Positions 2,841 through 7,564 of a stretch of 21,991 bases of DNA are shown here, in pieces. The notes beneath the pieces are model-generated. The model was given only the letters and a program-made list of their open reading frames with translations. It was not told the DNA's origin and searched no databases. The stretch is from a virus: the UHGV virus genome UHGV-0131363; one strand, written 5' to 3'. The first letter of the stretch is position 1. Every line of letters starts with the position of its first letter. The translations under genes and the position numbers were made by a program.

Positions 2841-5207
2841 TTAATCGTAAATTGTAGTCCCTTCTGGAACACATTTTACATCAAAACCTAAGAACTTACT
2901 CACTTCGATGGGTGACACTTTATTCCAATCTAAATGAGAAAGCAAGAAGTTTTCTTGTTTTCTTTTTGAAAGATAGTTTGCCACCTTAATAACCATACGG
3001 TCACCAGCTTTCTTAATTTTCTTGTAAAGCTTTGTATCGTTGTCAAGACAGTCTTTCAAAGTTTTCAATACACTAATGGTATAAGTGTATGCAAATGGTG
3101 CAGCAACGTATTGGATTTTACCGAACATTGCCTCTACAGCCTCTTCATTTCCTTCTAGGAAGATAGTTTTGTTTGTATCCCTTGAATAACAATACCCGCG
3201 AGAAATCTTCCTGTTATTAAACGTAAAGTTTCTGGCAATAATCCAACTGCTTGTAAGGTCAAGGACACCATTCATATAGATACGCGTCATATATCTGTTA
3301 TGGTTAATCCAGTGAACATCAGTTAAGCTGTCGTTCAAGAGTTTCTCATCTACTTCAATCCAATCTTCTGGTATCTTTTTCCAATTTGCTTTTCGGAAAA
3401 CATAGACTGTCTTACCTGTAACATTAGCAACTGACTTAGCTACATCTTCTGGAGATGAGCAAAAACATTCACCATCAACTGTGTCACCAATTGCCTTAAT
3501 GTAAAGCTGAGGTTCTTCAATTGTGTCTAAGTCCTCTGACACCTCTTTGTAGGAGGCTACACCTTCTGCTGGAACAGCTTTCCAGAGTTTTACAACACCT
3601 CTTACAGCTTCTTTACGCTGGTAATGGTGTTCCTTATCAGACATTTTCACAATCTTTAACAAGCTTTTATCAAGTTTGTGCAGATTGATTAAGTCATCTA
3701 ACTCTTTTTCAGTCGAGAATACAAAGACAATACCATTGTATCTGTGAAACAGACTTGACTCACTGGCATAGTCTCGACATGCACCACGCAAGATTTGGTT
3801 GCGTCCTACAGTCTTCTCAGTACCATTTTTATTGCGACGGTCATTTATAACAAACAAAAACTGTTCAATTTGGCTTTTACGCATTGCGCCAAAGATATTG
3901 AACATACTTGCCTCTTGAGTGTAGGAAAGTGCTGTTGCACGAATCTTACTCTCTAAAGAGTTGAACTTGACATAAGCAACTGGGTCATAAAGATAATCTA
4001 CTTTAGGGATGTTGTTTCCGTTCCTATCAACCTTAATATTACCTTTACCGTCACGTTCATAAATGACTGAGCCGTCTTCTGCGTAGATAATTCCACGACG
4101 AATGTTTAGTAATTCTTCTTCCAGAGAATCAAGCTTAACGCCTCCCCACTCTAACTTTGGACACACAGCATTAAACATCTCTCGTGAGTTCAAACGTAAC
4201 TCAGCATAAGCCTGTGCAGCATCCATGAGTGTAGGTTGACTGTTAACTTTCTTGATAACATCCTTTGTAATTGCTTCAGTTATCTTTTTAGTAGCCTCAA
4301 TGATAACATTTTTTGTCGTGTCATTCATCTGCAATGCTTCACGAGAAGCTGCAATAGCGACTGAACCAATAGGCATGTAGATGTTTACAAGGTCTACGCT
4401 CCTACGGAAAAATTCTGGCAATACTTTGAAGAAATCATCACCAAGTAATGCTTCCATGTTAACAGGGTAGGCAATGTTACCCATCACCACATTAAACTCT
4501 GTCCTGTTATCACTAGAACGCCAGCTGTGCTTATGAATCATGGCATCATAAACACCTTCTTCACGGGCAATGACGTTCATATCTGCTAATACATCGTCGT
4601 ACTCAATATTACTTTCTGGTTTTACAGTGAAGTATGAGTACACATTCCCAGCTTCTTCAAAGAACTTTGAGATACGGTGGTCAGCAACTGCCACACGTAC
4701 AGCTAAACCATTAGGTTCTTTTGTTGGGTTAGTTGTCAGCTTAGTTACTTGAGGGATACCATTCTCAAGATAAACAGAGTACTTATTAACAACACCATCA
4801 ACATAGCTAGATACTGTGAATGACTGAGCAATTGCAAATGGTGACTTTGAGCCGATACCCATTGCACCAATGTAGTCATTAGAGTCATTCTTCGTAGAAG
4901 CTCCATAGTTTAGGTACAAACTCATAACTTTATCATGAGTCAATCCAGTTCCAAAATCACGAACTTCGAAGTAAGGCTCAAAACGAGTAGGTAAATGCAC
5001 ATGGAATGGGATGTTCTCTTTTCCAGCCTCTTTCTGAGCATCTACTGCGTTACATGACAGTTCACGAATCACTGCCCTTTCTTTAAAGGTATATACACCA
5101 GAACTCAAAAGGCTGAACATTTCAGGTGTCATTGTAATCTGTGCTTGAGACGTCTCTAAAGAAGTTGAACTCTTAATCACTTCTGCGTGGTCGTTTACCA
5201 TGCGCAT
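2841..5207 (-). CDS. rIIA: rIIA protein (T4 rIIA-like, GHKL-type ATPase fold at N-terminus)
   Basis: 788 aa. N-terminal EMFSLLSSGVYTFKERAVIRELSCNAVDAQ and DFGTGLT...GAMGIGSKSPF match the Bergerat ATPase N-box and G-box pattern of T4 rIIA. RBS GAGGA upstream of the ATG at 5207. Confidence 0.85.
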   Translation of the reverse strand: MRMVNDHAEVIKSSTSLETSQAQITMTPEMFSLLSSGVYTFKERAVIRELSCNAVDAQKEAGKENIPFHVHLPTRFEPYFEVRDFGTGLTHDKVMSLYLNYGASTKNDSNDYIGAMGIGSKSPFAIAQSFTVSSYVDGVVNKYSVYLENGIPQVTKLTTNPTKEPNGLAVRVAVADHRISKFFEEAGNVYSYFTVKPESNIEYDDVLADMNVIAREEGVYDAMIHKHSWRSSDNRTEFNVVMGNIAYPVNMEALLGDDFFKVLPEFFRRSVDLVNIYMPIGSVAIAASREALQMNDTTKNVIIEATKKITEAITKDVIKKVNSQPTLMDAAQAYAELRLNSREMFNAVCPKLEWGGVKLDSLEEELLNIRRGIIYAEDGSVIYERDGKGNIKVDRNGNNIPKVDYLYDPVAYVKFNSLESKIRATALSYTQEASMFNIFGAMRKSQIEQFLFVINDRRNKNGTEKTVGRNQILRGACRDYASESSLFHRYNGIVFVFSTEKELDDLINLHKLDKSLLKIVKMSDKEHHYQRKEAVRGVVKLWKAVPAEGVASYKEVSEDLDTIEEPQLYIKAIGDTVDGECFCSSPEDVAKSVANVTGKTVYVFRKANWKKIPEDWIEVDEKLLNDSLTDVHWINHNRYMTRIYMNGVLDLTSSWIIARNFTFNNRKISRGYCYSRDTNKTIFLEGNEEAVEAMFGKIQYVAAPFAYTYTISVLKTLKDCLDNDTKLYKKIKKAGDRMVIKVANYLSKRKQENFLLSHLDWNKVSPIEVSKFLGFDVKCVPEGTTIYD

Positions 5208-5235
5208 AATACTTTCCTCTTAGTTTACTGTTAAA

Positions 5236-5412
5236 TTACTTGTTAAACATTTTACCAGAACCACCACACATAGGGCAACAACCTGCTCTTGTATAACCTT
5301 CCCCATTACAGTAGTCACATTTTTTGTGCTCTGCATAGTACTTACAAAGAAGGTAAACAAACACTGCTACGCCACCAAGTGACAGTAAAATTTCTATCCA
5401 ATATGCTTGCAT
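5236..5412 (-). CDS. small membrane-anchored zinc-finger protein (two CxxCxGxG DnaJ-type motifs), not in ORF track (58 aa)
   Basis: Manual translation from ATG 5412..5410 to TAA 5238..5236 gives MQAYWIEILLSLGGVAVFVYLLCKYYAEHKKCDYCNGEGYTRAGCCPMCGGSGKMFNK. It has an N-terminal hydrophobic helix followed by CDYCNGEG and CPMCGGSG. RBS GAGGTG 6 nt upstream. Fills the gap between the 111-aa ORF and rIIA. Confidence 0.45.
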   Translation of the reverse strand: MQAYWIEILLSLGGVAVFVYLLCKYYAEHKKCDYCNGEGYTRAGCCPMCGGSGKMFNK

Positions 5413-5729
5413 GACTCACCTCTCATATTCTTGTAAAGGATAAAGCTTCTGTCATGGACGATACTTGTAGATACTGCAAAGTTACTTTCAAGCATCTGTT
5501 TATTTGGATTGTAGAAGCTTTCTTTAAACTCGTCAAGTGCAAATTGGTGATTGTCTGGAAGACCTTTTACACAGACCTTTATTGTGATTGCTGCTGCAAT
5601 CTTACCAGTCAGTTCTTCTTTAGCTGCTACTAAAATTTTGTTAAGGAACTTATGACCATTTTCAGGTTTCTTGATGTTCTCCCAACGTTCCTCTAAGACG
5701 ATGTTGATGTTCATCTCTTTGATTTTCAT
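5394..5729 (-). CDS. hypothetical protein (111 aa)
   Basis: ORF with RBS GGAGAAG upstream of the ATG at 5729, same strand as neighbours. No recognisable motif. Confidence 0.55.
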   Translation of the reverse strand: MKIKEMNINIVLEERWENIKKPENGHKFLNKILVAAKEELTGKIAAAITIKVCVKGLPDNHQFALDEFKESFYNPNKQMLESNFAVSTSIVHDRSFILYKNMRGESCKHIG

Positions 5730-5740
5730 AATCTTCTCCA

Positions 5741-5768
5741 GAAATTAAAAAGGCTCCCGTAGGAGCCT
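5741..5768 (-). terminator. rho-independent terminator downstream of the Nampt-family gene
   Basis: Minus-strand RNA forms AGGCUCC-uacg-GGAGCCU (7-bp stem, plus-strand arms 5751-5757 and 5762-5768) followed by UUUUAAUUUC. Confidence 0.65.
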
Positions 5769-5771
5769 CTT

Positions 5772-5799
5772 ATCATATACTTTTAAAGCTGCTTGTCAA
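5772..5799 (-). promoter_or_regulatory. candidate sigma70-type promoter (-35 TTGACA, 16-nt spacer, -10 TATGAT) overlapping the 3' end of the Nampt-family gene
   Basis: Minus strand reads TTGACA (plus tgtcaa 5794-5799), a 16-nt spacer, then TATGAT (plus atcata 5772-5777). The predicted start site falls inside the terminator hairpin, so transcripts from here would bypass it and read into the 111-aa gene, the small zinc-finger ORF and rIIA. Confidence 0.3.
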
Positions 5800-7564
5800 T
5801 ATTATTTCGAATATCACCAAGAGTTGTGTAGCCGAACTGCTCAGAGTCGCTAAAGACTAGACGTAAAGCACAAGCTGGATGTTCAAGTGCATCTGCAAAG
5901 CTCTGGAACCCATAGCCATCTACAGCTTTCAGATTTTCACCATCCCACATAGGTGCTACACCACCAAAAGCAGACTTCTTAACACCACTATCTGTTTTAG
6001 GGTCTTTTGCAAGCATAATCTCTTTACCACCAATGCTTGCAAGGGTTGCTTTGACAGCAAATGCAAAGGTGTCACGAGTCATGTACTGGTAAGTGTAAGA
6101 ACCTACACCAAACACTACGTTAGAGCTTGCAAAACCCATTTCATACAAACGCTTCAGTATTTCATTTGCACGTTCCAACGTGATAGAGTCGCCATAAATA
6201 AGTCCAATATGCTCATCCAGTACTTTAAAGCCTTTAGAGTTAATAGTTCCCCCAAAGATGTTGTACAGTGTCTTAATAGCTCCATCAATCTCAGCTACAG
6301 GACGTGTTACAACGTTTGCAGAACCAACCATATAAGCATTTTTCAACATCACTGTATCAGCAACTTCAAAGTCTTCTCTGTCAACAACCATCTCGTAGCC
6401 TTCTGACAGTAGCCATCCAGCAATACCATAGTTGATGTTCTCAAGCTTCATGTTCAGAACAGCATTCAACATTGTGTCACTGGCTTCCAGCTTGCTTAGG
6501 TGCTCGTAATAAGCCTTCTTAGCACATTCTAAGTGGATTGCTTTATAACCTGTGACAATATGTACAGGGTCTCCAGAGTCAGGACGAATTACCAGTTTAC
6601 CGTCACGTCCCATAATCTCTTTGCGAAGTGCTGGTAAAATTTCTGACACAGTTCTCCAGAAGTTATAAGTGTCTGAAACAACACTTGCAATACCAGTTGG
6701 GTAAGTTTCTGTTAAGAAACGACGGAAGGTTTGTAACTCACCTTTAAAGCGTCTTTCTTCTTCAATCAACTCATTACCACCTTCCCAAGCAATGTTTGCA
6801 CACATTACAGAGTGCTCAGTGGCTGGTACAGAGCTACCAATATCAGAGATTGGGTAAGACTGCCCATAAATGCGTTTAGCCGTGTATACAGCAGGGAAGC
6901 TATCAGTTCCTTTAAAGCTGGTTAAGTGACCTACAGCATTAAATGCGTCATCAGTAAAGCCTGACATGCCACGCATAGCAAAGTCATGGCACTGATAGGG
7001 CAGATGCAAGTCGTTGTCACAAGTAAGGTCAGCCCACTTCTTACAGATGCGTTTGTAATGCAATGCAATAGTTGCAATGGTACAAGCCTTCCAAATCTCA
7101 GCAGAGAAAGCATCTTCCAGATAACCTGCTACCCAATGGAAACCTGAAACAGTGTTCTGGAAAACAATCATTGGGACACGCATAGGGACAACTGTGCCTT
7201 CTTCTACAGCGTATACTTCAACTGGTAGATAACCTAAGTCGTGAAGTGCTTCCCAATGCTCTCTACCGATAGCATCTTTACCCAGAACACCATTCATGAC
7301 TTCTAAGATTTCGTCAATTGCTTCTTTTTTATCACGTTCAAAGAAAGTGGCATTCCAGTGGTCTATCAAGTAATCTTTAACAAAACGTTGAATACCAAAA
7401 GCTACTACACCATCAATTGCTAAGGGGCTGTTAAACCATTTATCACTGCGTGGTGTCAGGTTCAACATAAGATATTGCGTAGCATCTGGATACTGATATA
7501 TATGTGATGCCTTGTAAGCATCTGCATTAAGACCTGCTGGTACTGCGTAAAGTGACTTACTCAT
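5783..7564 (-). CDS. nadV: nicotinamide phosphoribosyltransferase-family protein (Nampt/NadV-like); candidate Namat (nicotinamide ADP-ribose transferase) of a NARP1 NAD+ reconstitution pathway
   Basis: 593 aa. N-terminal NADAYKASHIYQYP (Nampt DSYK motif), HDFAMRGMSGF...HLTSFKGTDS...SVPATEHS, VVSDTYNFW...LVIRPDSGDP and GLIYGDSIT...VVFGVGSYTYQ follow the Nampt-family motif order. About 100 aa longer than canonical Nampt. Located 1 gene away from a Prs-family gene. Confidence 0.9.
   Translation of the reverse strand: MSKSLYAVPAGLNADAYKASHIYQYPDATQYLMLNLTPRSDKWFNSPLAIDGVVAFGIQRFVKDYLIDHWNATFFERDKKEAIDEILEVMNGVLGKDAIGREHWEALHDLGYLPVEVYAVEEGTVVPMRVPMIVFQNTVSGFHWVAGYLEDAFSAEIWKACTIATIALHYKRICKKWADLTCDNDLHLPYQCHDFAMRGMSGFTDDAFNAVGHLTSFKGTDSFPAVYTAKRIYGQSYPISDIGSSVPATEHSVMCANIAWEGGNELIEEERRFKGELQTFRRFLTETYPTGIASVVSDTYNFWRTVSEILPALRKEIMGRDGKLVIRPDSGDPVHIVTGYKAIHLECAKKAYYEHLSKLEASDTMLNAVLNMKLENINYGIAGWLLSEGYEMVVDREDFEVADTVMLKNAYMVGSANVVTRPVAEIDGAIKTLYNIFGGTINSKGFKVLDEHIGLIYGDSITLERANEILKRLYEMGFASSNVVFGVGSYTYQYMTRDTFAFAVKATLASIGGKEIMLAKDPKTDSGVKKSAFGGVAPMWDGENLKAVDGYGFQSFADALEHPACALRLVFSDSEQFGYTTLGDIRNNIDKQL

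Follow-up and report, generated by a model that had tools for sequence, protein, structure and literature searches.

The Bacillus protein anti-TRAP (RtpA), about 53 residues long, is built around one DnaJ-type Cys4 knuckle formed by two adjacent motifs that contain CxxC, and as described (PMC2896485) it acts by binding TRAP and not by catalysis. Arabidopsis FIP (At5g02160) has a short lumenal N-terminus, one transmembrane domain (TMD) and a stromal C4 finger with two CXXCXGXG motifs, has no J domain, and binds the membrane protein FtsH5; its authors report it solely in mosses and higher plants (PMC5915565). DnaJ has four such motifs and two zinc centres, placed between its J/GF region and its C-terminal domains.

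A phage protein of related design has been in the public records for some time. Felix O1 gp131 was listed in 2010 as a membrane protein with one TMD (Whichard et al. 2010), and its record (NP_945023.1) is titled 'hypothetical membrane protein'; the Mushroom counterpart, CPT_Mushroom2 (AJF40532.1, 2015), is called 'heat shock protein; DnaJ-like, contains cysteine-rich domain', and the Moogle record names its ortholog merely 'hypothetical protein'. Gene, membrane anchor and DnaJ-like Cys-rich motif are already known and are not new; they figure in the public annotations of considerably more than a hundred records of Felix O1-like phages. An earlier note on the present DNA had called the gene unannotated, which is true of the open reading frame (ORF) track available to its author and of that only, the orthologs being annotated. 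Our literature searches on Felixounavirus transcriptomics, on CXXCXGXG proteins of phages and on small DnaJ-like membrane proteins of phages turned up genome announcements in which such motifs are mentioned, and no functional study. Several Felix O1-like phages have been studied for biocontrol or therapy.

The DNA analyzed here (the window) is a stretch of 21,991 nucleotides from virus genome UHGV-0131363. The genome is 99.8% identical to phage KhF2 and, by sequence comparison, is that of a Felix O1-like phage (Felixounavirus, Ounavirinae), not of a T4-like phage as had been supposed. The protein of interest, 58 aa long, matches phrog_3931 over its full length (E = 4.9e-33; residues 1-58 align with positions 1-59 of the 59-position profile), is 95% identical to the intact cluster P0001 (262 members) and identical to the KhF2 copy; 22 metagenomic Felixounavirus copies show 90-98% identity. 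Felix O1 gp131 and CPT_Mushroom2 occupy the same position between ORF130 and rIIA, with the same 19-nt overlap, and differ from it in no substantive way. Judged on these alignments and this position, the ORF is the ortholog of Felix O1 gp131, that is, the same gene.

The locus and its neighbors

The ORF is read from the minus strand, beginning with an ATG at 5412-5410 and terminated by TAA, and encodes MQAYWIEILLSLGGVAVFVYLLCKYYAEHKKCDYCNGEGYTRAGCCPMCGGSGKMFNK. The features that the earlier note had read from the letters (a 58-aa ORF, the GAGGTG ribosome-binding site before it, a single hydrophobic helix, and the motifs CDYCNGEG and CPMCGGSG) were all confirmed. The GAGGTG stretch is unchanged across four aligned Felixounavirus sequences, and the ribosome-binding site of the ORF is annotated as such in phages Meda and Mushroom. 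Coordinates are given in Table 1.

Table 1. Positions, within the window, of the gp131 ortholog, its predicted protein features and the neighboring elements.
Feature	Position	Strand	Remarks
rIIA, 788 aa	2841..5207	minus	PHROG 612, E = 4.6e-189
58-aa ORF (stop included), gp131 ortholog	5236..5412	minus	PHROG 3931, NP_945023.1
Predicted zinc-knuckle module, residues 32-53	5254..5319	minus	CxxCxGxG, 6 residues, CxxCxGxG
Second motif, CPMCGGSG	5254-5277	minus	
First motif, CDYCNGEG	5296-5319	minus	
Predicted single transmembrane helix, about residues 6-23	5344..5397	minus	hydrophobicity, AF2 model
ORF130 ortholog, 111 aa	5394..5729	minus	PHROG 4262; directly upstream
Shine-Dalgarno GAGGTG	5417..5422	minus	4 nt 5' of ATG, within 3' end of upstream ORF
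Hairpin terminator	5771-5748	minus	immediately after promoter, nadV/ORF130 junction
Sigma-70-like promoter, TTGACA-16-TATGAT	5799-5772	minus	nadV/ORF130 junction

The last 19 nt of ORF130 overlap the start of the 58-aa ORF, an arrangement found likewise in KhF2, Meda, Moogle (50% identical), Mordin, Felix O1 and Mushroom. Through translational coupling at this overlap the two ORFs are probably co-expressed. On the other side, rIIA starts 29 nt past the stop of the 58-aa ORF. In Meda, Felix O1 and Moogle the junction that carries the promoter and terminator has hardly changed, and the annotations of Meda and Mordin include the terminator.

The order nadV, ORF130, 58-aa ORF, rIIA is kept in KhF2, Meda, Felix O1, Mushroom, Moogle, Mordin and phiEa21-4. 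Where rIIA is in view (Felixounavirus, Moogle, phiEa21-4) the gp131-family gene is the last before it; in Mordin and Arno18 the family gene ends a record that was opened at rIIA. Synteny with rIIA extends across Felixounavirus, Mooglevirus, Kolesnikvirus and the Arno18 lineage, which are all the Ounavirinae lineages examined. As a sign of a functional link it is weak, however, since the genomes of Ounavirinae are by and large collinear and since the homolog of RB49/JSE-type phages adjoins nrdH, whereas gp131 adjoins rIIA. ORF130 is absent from Arno18; any partnership with gp130 is therefore not universal.

In the one RT-PCR survey of Felix O1, which covered the flanking genes, the peak of both ORF130 and rIIA comes at 25 min, in a class shared with nucleotide-metabolism genes; with such neighbors the placing of the ORF in an early region, as proposed before, is not established. 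ORF130 gave no match in searches of Pfam, PDB and NCBIfam; its AF2 model (pLDDT 69) returned weak matches resembling the IF3 C-terminal domain (best E = 0.012, TM about 0.4-0.46). Gene product 116 of phiEa21-4 looks by eye like a plausible ORF130 homolog, but with an hhalign probability of 1.9% we do not claim it as one. T4 rIIA.1, which stands at the position equivalent to that of gp131, is unrelated, being a soluble acidic protein of 67 aa with no Cys and no TMD. A search of the whole window for Rfam families returned none.

Predicted membrane helix and zinc knuckle

The helix has a mean Kyte-Doolittle value of 2.13 over 19 residues (5-23; values for the helix lie at 2.1-2.3), and a hydrophobic segment was found in all 12 family members compared. 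The AF2 model (pLDDT 77.8) consists of a helix spanning residues 3-28 and a hairpin. The tail of 35 residues that follows the transmembrane (TM) helix holds a single Cys4 module, with only five residues after the last Gly of the second motif. Eight positions, namely C32, C35, G37, G39, C46, C49, G51 and G53, do not vary anywhere in the range from Felixounavirus to JSE-like phages, and the four Cys among them are the predicted Zn ligands.

Comparison of the family profile with solved structures gave the DnaJ Cys-rich domains 1EXK (E = 2.9e-9), 2CTT (5.7e-6) and 6JZB (1.3e-4), and anti-TRAP 3LCZ (0.011). PF00684, the Pfam model of the DnaJ Cys-rich domain, was matched by eight of nine family members at E <= 0.1, the present protein scoring 15.3 bits against a cut-off of 32.7 over profile positions 41-65 of 65; for TIGR02349 the score was 16 bits against 377. 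When the model was compared by Foldseek, the best matches were anti-TRAP structures (3LD0, 3LCZ and 2BX9; rmsd 1.1-1.3 Å over 29 aa, the first at 1.1 Å with 34% identity and probability 1.0), followed by DnaJA2, the DnaJ Cys-rich domain and, weakly, BSD2. Motifs 3 and 4 of DnaJ are likewise of CxxCxGxG form, and there too 10 residues separate the second Cys from the third. On the strength of the model the soluble part corresponds to one half of the Cys-rich domain of DnaJ, folded as a single anti-TRAP-like knuckle; with two of the four DnaJ motifs it would have just one zinc centre. At the level of the superfamily the sequence matches place it with the DnaJ-type knuckle fold, Zn2+ binding itself being a prediction with which the AF2 model and its superposition on anti-TRAP agree. 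The membrane anchor and DnaJ-type zinc module proposed earlier are in this way backed, as predictions, by profile and fold comparison.

The likeness to anti-TRAP is confined to the knuckle. An N-terminal TM helix sets the phage protein apart from anti-TRAP, which is soluble. In the 53-residue anti-TRAP chain the alignment takes in residues 10-34, past which some 19 residues remain, and the phage protein, ending five residues after its knuckle, has no counterpart of that segment. The C-terminal segment of anti-TRAP mediates assembly of its trimers and dodecamers. The RtpA model NF058604 scored 11 bits against a cut-off of 65, so the phage protein is not a member of the anti-TRAP family; PF15777 was matched by two of nine family members (best E = 0.03). 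With FIP, compared by description only and the nearest analogue in architecture, both the layout and the predicted topology agree, the lumen being equivalent to the periplasm and the stroma to the cytoplasm. FIP nevertheless belongs to the thylakoids of plants and carries a transit peptide, and no FIP-like plant protein appeared among the mid-sized profile matches that we inspected. Independent assembly of the same two parts would explain the likeness to FIP as readily as common descent.

The distribution of charge around the helix provides some information on orientation. The N-terminal flank is free of Lys and Arg in 12 of 12 family members, and the C-terminal flank carries between one and four; in the 58-aa protein the soluble tail as a whole has six Lys/Arg and three Asp/Glu. 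On this basis, and in answer to the topology check that the earlier note had called for, the predicted topology is N-out/C-in. C-flank charges range from +4/-1 in JSE-type members to +1/-5 in Moogle-type members, and this net acidic flank makes the positive-inside call weaker for Moogle-type orthologs.

It is also conceivable that the helix is a signal anchor inserted the other way round (N-in/C-out), so that the Cys-rich tail lies in the periplasm, where its CxxC pairs would form disulfides or the tail would contact Dsb or other envelope proteins, for example in superinfection exclusion. The net acidic C-flank of the Moogle, P0015 and P0021 orthologs is compatible with such an orientation, and exported versions of the module do exist: the profile search recovered bacterial signal-peptide proteins with multiple CxxCxGxG modules after a clear signal peptide (for example P0082, P0107 and P0118). 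The positively charged n-region typical of signal anchors is nonetheless absent, the contrast between an uncharged N-flank and a C-flank with at least one Lys/Arg holds in every one of the 12 members, with +4/-1 in the JSE type, and Cys4-Zn sites are characteristic of the cytoplasm. We consider the inverted orientation unlikely. Reading 'LLC' (residues 21-23) as a lipoprotein signal was rejected: the n-region carries no positive charge, and the Cys is absent from the Arno18, phiEa21-4 and JSE-type members. Nor does Leu match the lipobox at the position directly preceding the Cys.

Possible functions

If the topology rules hold, the protein would insert N-out/C-in in the inner membrane, which would turn its module toward the reducing cytoplasm. 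There C32, C35, C46 and C49 would bind one Zn2+ and form an anti-TRAP-like beta-hairpin knuckle at the inner face of the membrane. The knuckle may then serve as a membrane-tethered protein-protein interaction module, the least certain step of the proposal. We regard such a role as the most likely one because the protein lacks a J domain and leaves no space for catalysis, and because free-standing half-DnaJ modules have been reported to act in this way, anti-TRAP on TRAP and the plant protein FIP on FtsH5. At the membrane the module would either recruit a single partner or sequester it, and the protein would be made together with ORF130, by coupling at the overlap, from transcripts shared with rIIA. 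Taken as a whole, the picture of a TM-anchored cytoplasmic zinc knuckle that binds protein at the inner membrane is, in our judgment, somewhat more probable than its negation.

As candidate partners we would put first the phage's own membrane-associated RIIA/RIIB or its gp130, and after these FtsH or DnaK of the host. It might be that gp131 is a membrane-tethered zinc-knuckle adaptor with a specific inner-membrane target, either the missing membrane anchor or an assembly factor for the peripheral proteins RIIA/RIIB or, by analogy with FIP, a modulator of the host protease FtsH; so definite a role has, to our mind, an outside chance. Were it true, it would supply the first function for the widespread tiny 'DnaJ-like' zinc-finger ORFs of phages and a new handle on the rII system. 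The mechanism of rII is a long-unsolved classic problem, and gp131 would matter to it if it tethered or regulated RIIA/RIIB or FtsH. The present gain is a firmer description: a gene under selection, a probably cytoplasmic knuckle, apparent coupling to ORF130, and adjacency to rIIA across the Ounavirinae. The suggestion of the earlier note that proteins of this kind are candidates for host takeover or interference with defense is pure speculation, and neither the 58-aa protein nor ORF130 matched any of the PADLOC defense models.

The annotation of the Mushroom ortholog implies a different role, that of a DnaJ-like chaperone or thiol-disulfide oxidoreductase, which would hold unfolded substrates or reshuffle the disulfides of membrane proteins. 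Such roles have been reported for the zinc centres of DnaJ and for plant DnaJ-like zinc-finger proteins, and both the significant profile similarity to DnaJ Cys-rich domains and the weak fold match to BSD2 are in keeping with them. Yet the Pfam and NCBIfam searches revealed no J domain (HPD), and the protein has neither a G/F region nor C-terminal substrate-binding domains; of the four motifs it has just two, with scores far under the cut-offs of PF00684 and TIGR02349. A knuckle of 30 residues is too small to act by itself as a holdase, and the cytoplasmic side is an unlikely place for disulfide chemistry. Chaperone or oxidoreductase activity thus seems to us improbable.

Lower still we rate the proposal that gp131 is a holin or lysis-timing protein, a small single-TMD protein that forms or regulates holes in the membrane. 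Whichard et al. (2010) named it as one of five candidates by size, TMD and charge, the holin of the group is unsettled, the announcement of Meda identifying none, and the gene adjoins the rII 'lysis inhibitor' genes. The candidacy of 2010, however, was based solely on generic features (one TMD and a charged C-terminus) which the protein does have. Other announcements appear to place the holin elsewhere, as far as a comparison of labels goes: that of Mushroom gives a class III holin (1 TMD, N-in/C-out) in a record that labels the gp131 ortholog DnaJ-like, and that of Moogle gives a putative holin in a genome where the ortholog is a 'hypothetical protein'. The orientation predicted for 12 of 12 members is opposite to that of class III, and a folded Cys4 zinc knuckle fills nearly the whole soluble tail. 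The neighbors nadV, ORF130 and rIIA, with the RT-PCR peak at 25 min in the nucleotide-metabolism class, speak against a holin, as does the presence of homologs in RB49/JSE-type phages. As T4 relatives, those phages are expected to carry a T-type holin. We conclude that the labels 'holin' and 'heat shock protein' are probably both wrong, and that an interaction module remains the preferred reading.

Selection on the reading frame and relatives in other phages

Within the six frames of the 22-kb window CxxCxGxG occurs twice, both times in the 58-aa ORF. Composition-preserving shuffles give an expectation of 0.073 single motifs per window; a pair of motifs within 40 aa did not arise in any of the 300 shuffles made. 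The uniqueness of the motifs and the result of the shuffles together show that the observation is real and far beyond chance.

In the alignment of orthologs, pN/pS is 0.094 in frame, compared to 1.85 and 1.03 in the control frames. Variable columns fall at codon positions 1, 2 and 3 in the ratio 9/5/29, such that position 3 accounts for 29 of 43; dN/dS between Felix and Moogle is 0.13-0.17. The earlier note had staked its reading on conservation of the frame and of the Cys spacing in relatives: the ORF is intact in 26 of 26 orthologs fetched and, at 39-57% identity across genera, the Cys and Gly of the motifs are invariant. On this comparative evidence the 58-codon ORF is a genuine gene under strong purifying selection. 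That it is instead a chance ORF in the rIIA leader or intergenic region, as its length of just 58 codons and a few frameshifted database entries might suggest, has next to no probability: a pN/pS of 0.09 with variation at third positions, intact and Cys/Gly-invariant orthologs, and a motif pair absent from the shuffles already refute it, so far as comparative sequence analysis can reach.

The frameshifted homologs (P0003, P0005-P0007 and phiWec172) were considered as evidence against conservation and rejected, these rare database entries being single-base indels in homopolymers. In phiWec172, the copy checked at the DNA level, a single base is deleted within a G-run; the P0005 protein sequence equals the product expected from loss of one A in an A6 run; and in the P0007 record nadV and rIIA are fragmented as well. 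The frameshifted clusters have one member apiece, whereas P0001, the intact cluster, has 262. Occasional frameshifted copies may nevertheless include true loss-of-function variants, which would mean that the gene is dispensable in culture.

Homologs with the full layout of TM helix plus knuckle are RB49p046/JSE EpJSE_00047, phiEa21-4 gp117 and Arno18 orf147. A weak tblastn match in Vibrio phage K280 was dropped, since the sequence it falls on bears no annotation and nothing around it supports the match. Phages commonly carry small, uncharacterised ORFs with a DnaJ-type zinc finger: many more phage ORFs, of 46-130 aa, bear the same knuckle, for example 'putative heat shock proteins' of Bacillus phages, and most of them align over some 30 residues only, which is the length of the knuckle.

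A catalogued gene of Felix O1-like phages

The 900 bases around the 58-aa ORF share 99.8% identity with Enterobacteria phage KhF2, and the same region matches 252 phage records, nearly all of them Felix O1-like phages (Ounavirinae, Felixounavirus) of Escherichia, Salmonella and Shigella. The window is therefore Felix O1-like and not, as the earlier note had it, T4-like; the nearby rIIA and rIIB, together with nadV, probably prompted that idea. The ORF is the ortholog of Felix O1 gp131 (ORF131, NP_945023.1), whose family is PHROG 3931 (E = 4.9e-33).

Nor is the ORF unannotated, as had been claimed: orthologs are labelled 'putative membrane protein, similar to NP_945023.1 of Felix O1' (KhF2), 'possible membrane protein' (Meda_002 of Meda, with the RBS annotated), 'hypothetical membrane protein' (Felix O1) and 'heat shock protein; DnaJ-like, contains cysteine-rich domain' (Mushroom). 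In its Supplementary Table 1, the genome paper on Felix O1 lists ORF131 as 'CHP, Membrane protein (1 TMD), 58 aa, pI 8.0', with EpJSE_00047 of phage JSE as nearest homolog (39% identity) and transcription entered as 'NT' (not tested) (PMC3185647). Given this table and the Mushroom label, both features that had drawn attention to the ORF were already recorded. The feature is real and correctly described, but it is the catalogued gp131, and the analysis reveals no new kind of system; what is gained is a tidier description of gp131 and a case against the labels 'holin candidate' and 'heat shock protein'.

Features of the window, with genes in their minus-strand order
Feature	Position	Strand	Remarks
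nadV	5783-7564	minus
Sigma-70-like promoter TTGACA-16-TATGAT, then directly a strong hairpin terminator with 10-bp stem	5748-5799	minus	11/12 promoter matches; upstream of 111-aa ORF, at end of nadV
111-aa ORF	5394-5729	minus
GAGGTG (Shine-Dalgarno)	5417-5422	minus	4 bases ahead of the ATG of the 58-aa ORF, inside 111-aa ORF coding sequence
58-aa ORF	5412 down to 5236, stop included	minus	encodes MQAYWIEILLSLGGVAVFVYLLCKYYAEHKKCDYCNGEGYTRAGCCPMCGGSGKMFNK
A6 run	5320-5325	minus-strand sense	immediately before first Cys motif
G4 run	5301-5304	minus-strand sense	within first Cys motif
Alternative-frame ORF	5220-5360	minus	shifted frame open; 63-aa product
rIIA	2841-5207	minus
Second, strong sigma-70-like promoter match TTGACA-18-TAAAAT	2806-2835	minus	11/12; short rIIA-rIIB intergenic region
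rIIB		minus

Coding status and expression context

Residues 5-23 of gp131 are strongly hydrophobic (Kyte-Doolittle 2.13), and CDYCNGEG and CPMCGGSG, both in gp131, are the only CxxCxGxG matches in six frames of the 22-kb window. With a chance rate of 0.073 motifs per window and the pair present in none of 300 composition-preserving shuffles, the earlier note's account of a hydrophobic helix, an RBS and two motifs is accurate and not explained by chance. No stop or frameshift, which that note had set against a genuine gene, interrupts gp131 in any of the 26 copies compared; 24 of these are from Felixounavirus (22 in IMG/VR contigs, two in GenBank) and the other two from Mooglevirus. Among 21 distinct DNA sequences, 29 of the 43 variable columns fall at codon position 3, and pooled pN/pS is 0.094 in frame, versus 1.85 and 1.03 in the other two frames; between Felix O1 and Moogle dN/dS is 0.13-0.17, with synonymous sites saturated. 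The intact copies, the pattern of substitution and the motif pair together refute the view that the ORF is non-coding and mark it, by its sequence evolution, as a real gene.

Frameshifted variants are found among database proteins (clusters P0003 and P0005-P0007), with tails that continue into the overlapping frame. In phiWec172, the sole variant examined at the DNA level, one base is missing from the G-run; the P0005 protein sequence is as expected if the A6 run were one A shorter. P0007 is carried by MG969406.1, a Felix O1-like GenBank record of 109 kb in which the small ORF is frameshifted, nadV lies in pieces of 54 and 182 aa and rIIA in pieces of 308 and 222 aa; this looks like a low-quality assembly that adds spurious protein clusters to databases. 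In view of the homopolymer indels, the broken nadV and rIIA, and the size of the frameshift clusters (one member each, versus 262 in the intact cluster), the frameshifted copies are probably sequencing errors or sporadic mutations, perhaps real slippage, and not a sign of non-conservation.

The first 19 nt of the 58-aa ORF, counted from its ATG, are also the last 19 nt of the 111-aa ORF (5394-5412), and KhF2, Meda, Felix O1, Mushroom, Moogle and Mordin all have the identical overlap. Its retention down to the last two, at about 50% protein identity, suggests that the two ORFs are translationally coupled. The 111-aa ORF (ORF130 of Felix O1, PHROG 4262) is found only in Felixounavirus/Mooglevirus-type phages; its AlphaFold2 model is an alpha/beta fold (pLDDT 69) weakly similar to the IF3 C-terminal domain (best E = 0.012, TM about 0.4-0.46). 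The upstream promoter/terminator junction has hardly changed between Felix O1, Meda and even Moogle (proteins ~50% identical). Because the predicted start lies within the 5' arm of the hairpin, a transcript from this promoter might read on past the terminator at which nadV transcripts end.

The placement of the ORF in an early region is not established: in the Felix O1 RT-PCR survey the flanking genes are classed 'middle', with ORF129 (nadV), ORF130 and ORF1 (rIIA) peaking 25 min post infection, and ORF131 was left out. In the same survey rIIB (ORF2) peaks at 10 min, versus 25 min for rIIA, which fits separate promoters for the two.

In ULIM3, LF82P2, FSL SP-107 and SSBS18 a 901-bp query matched as two pieces across ~1,250 bp, and therefore a ~350-bp insertion lies within the nadV-rIIA interval; in Moogle and Mordin an additional ~73-aa ORF sits between nadV and the ORF130 homolog (Moogle record 2473-2694). 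The interval looks like a variable small-gene slot.

Conservation and fold

Orthologs of gp131 extend to Mooglevirus (Moogle, Mordin and Silverhawkium, 49-57% identity) and Pectobacterium phage Arno18 (~40%); a 54-aa protein of Erwinia phage phiEa21-4 (Kolesnikvirus) has the same layout. In every case in which the sequence covered includes rIIA (Felixounavirus, Moogle, phiEa21-4), rIIA directly follows the gene, and in Mordin and Arno18 the gene is the final one of a record opened at rIIA; the 52-aa homolog of Krischvirus (RB49/JSE-type) adjoins nrdH, not rIIA. M1, C32, C35, G37, G39, C46, C49, G51 and G53 are invariant across all intact members, and conservation of the Cys spacing, proposed earlier as a check, thus extends to all four motif Cys and four Gly; C23 and C45 vary.

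The AlphaFold2 model built on the family alignment (mean pLDDT 77.8) has a helix at 3-28 and, after it, a small knuckle of beta-hairpin type. The family profile matches DnaJ Cys-rich domains (1EXK, E = 2.9e-9; also 2CTT and 6JZB) and, more weakly, anti-TRAP 3LCZ (E = 0.011). In the PDB, the best Foldseek matches are to anti-TRAP (3LD0, 3LCZ and 2BX9; rmsd 1.1-1.3 Å, 28-34% identity over 29 residues, probability about 1.0), followed by DnaJA2, DnaJ Cys-rich domains and BSD2. The second-to-third Cys gap of 10 residues equals that of the aligned DnaJ motifs 3-4 (CPHCQGRGTLIKDPCNKC). The protein nevertheless qualifies as neither DnaJ nor anti-TRAP: it has no J domain, two motifs in place of DnaJ's four, and scores under the cut-offs of PF00684 (15.3 versus 32.7 bits) and TIGR02349 (16 versus 377), so that it lacks the defining features of a true DnaJ-like chaperone or oxidoreductase; compared with anti-TRAP (11 versus a 65-bit cut-off) it adds a TM helix and stops 5 residues past the knuckle.

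Conserved and maintained by selection, gp131 combines one TM helix with one DnaJ-type Cys4 module in 58 aa, a structural description that we regard as very probably correct.

Topology, possible role and similar small proteins

In 12 of 12 family members examined, Lys/Arg are absent from the N-flank of the TM helix and number 1-4 in the C-flank. Under the positive-inside rule the predicted orientation is N-terminus out and zinc module in the cytoplasm, the compartment in which chemistry would lead one to expect a Cys4-Zn site. A periplasmic zinc module is possible but disfavoured by the same charges; the net acidic C-flank of Moogle-type members weakens the call for those members.

gp131 is probably inserted N-out/C-in, and its Cys4 module is predicted to bind one Zn2+ and to form an anti-TRAP-like knuckle at the cytoplasmic face of the inner membrane. 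As a tentative proposal, somewhat less probable than its negation, gp131 would recruit or sequester one partner as a membrane-tethered protein-binding adaptor. The proposal is made by analogy, from the lack of a J domain, the lack of room for catalysis and the fact that both characterised free-standing modules bind proteins: anti-TRAP acts by binding TRAP (PMC2896485), and Arabidopsis FIP binds the membrane protease FtsH5 (PMC5915565). FIP is laid out like gp131, with a short N-terminus in the lumen, one TMD and a C4 finger of two CXXCXGXG repeats in the stroma, and likewise has no J domain.

Candidate partners of such an adaptor would be the neighbouring RIIA/RIIB, described as membrane-associated (PMC4837284), the probably co-translated gp130, and host FtsH or DnaK. 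A specific role as RII anchor or FtsH modulator is improbable; synteny with rIIA is weak support for a functional link, as gene order is shared throughout Ounavirinae genomes in any case and the homolog in JSE has another position. That gp131 is a holin, a candidacy put forward in 2010 on generic criteria, is unlikely: the predicted N-out/C-in orientation is opposite to that of class III holins, the soluble tail is filled by a predicted folded zinc knuckle, RT-PCR puts the peak of the flanking genes in the middle class, and a holin is reported in the announcements of Mushroom and Moogle, whose records call the gp131 ortholog 'DnaJ-like' and 'hypothetical protein', respectively. The Meda announcement identified no holin.

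When the family profile was run exhaustively against 1.8 billion representatives, the full TM-plus-knuckle layout turned up in only ~10 further small proteins; the remaining ~1,200 matches are mostly multi-repeat CxxCxGxG proteins, DnaJ among them. Among predicted viral structures the gp131-type knuckle recurs in many small phage proteins, all uncharacterised; several of them carry the label 'DnaJ-like' or 'putative heat shock protein'. Many short proteins from the profile search (P0032, P0035, P0051, P0062, P0081, P0082, P0107, P0118 and P0131) have a TM helix or signal peptide at the N-terminus and then 2-4 DnaJ-type zinc modules. The architecture seems to be widespread and is uncharacterised, and some of the proteins are apparently exported. 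In JSE, EpJSE_00047 (52 aa, JSE record 2495-2653) shares 11 nt with the end of the glutaredoxin-like nrdH. The apparent coupling of a Cys-rich zinc microprotein to a thiol-redox protein may or may not be meaningful.
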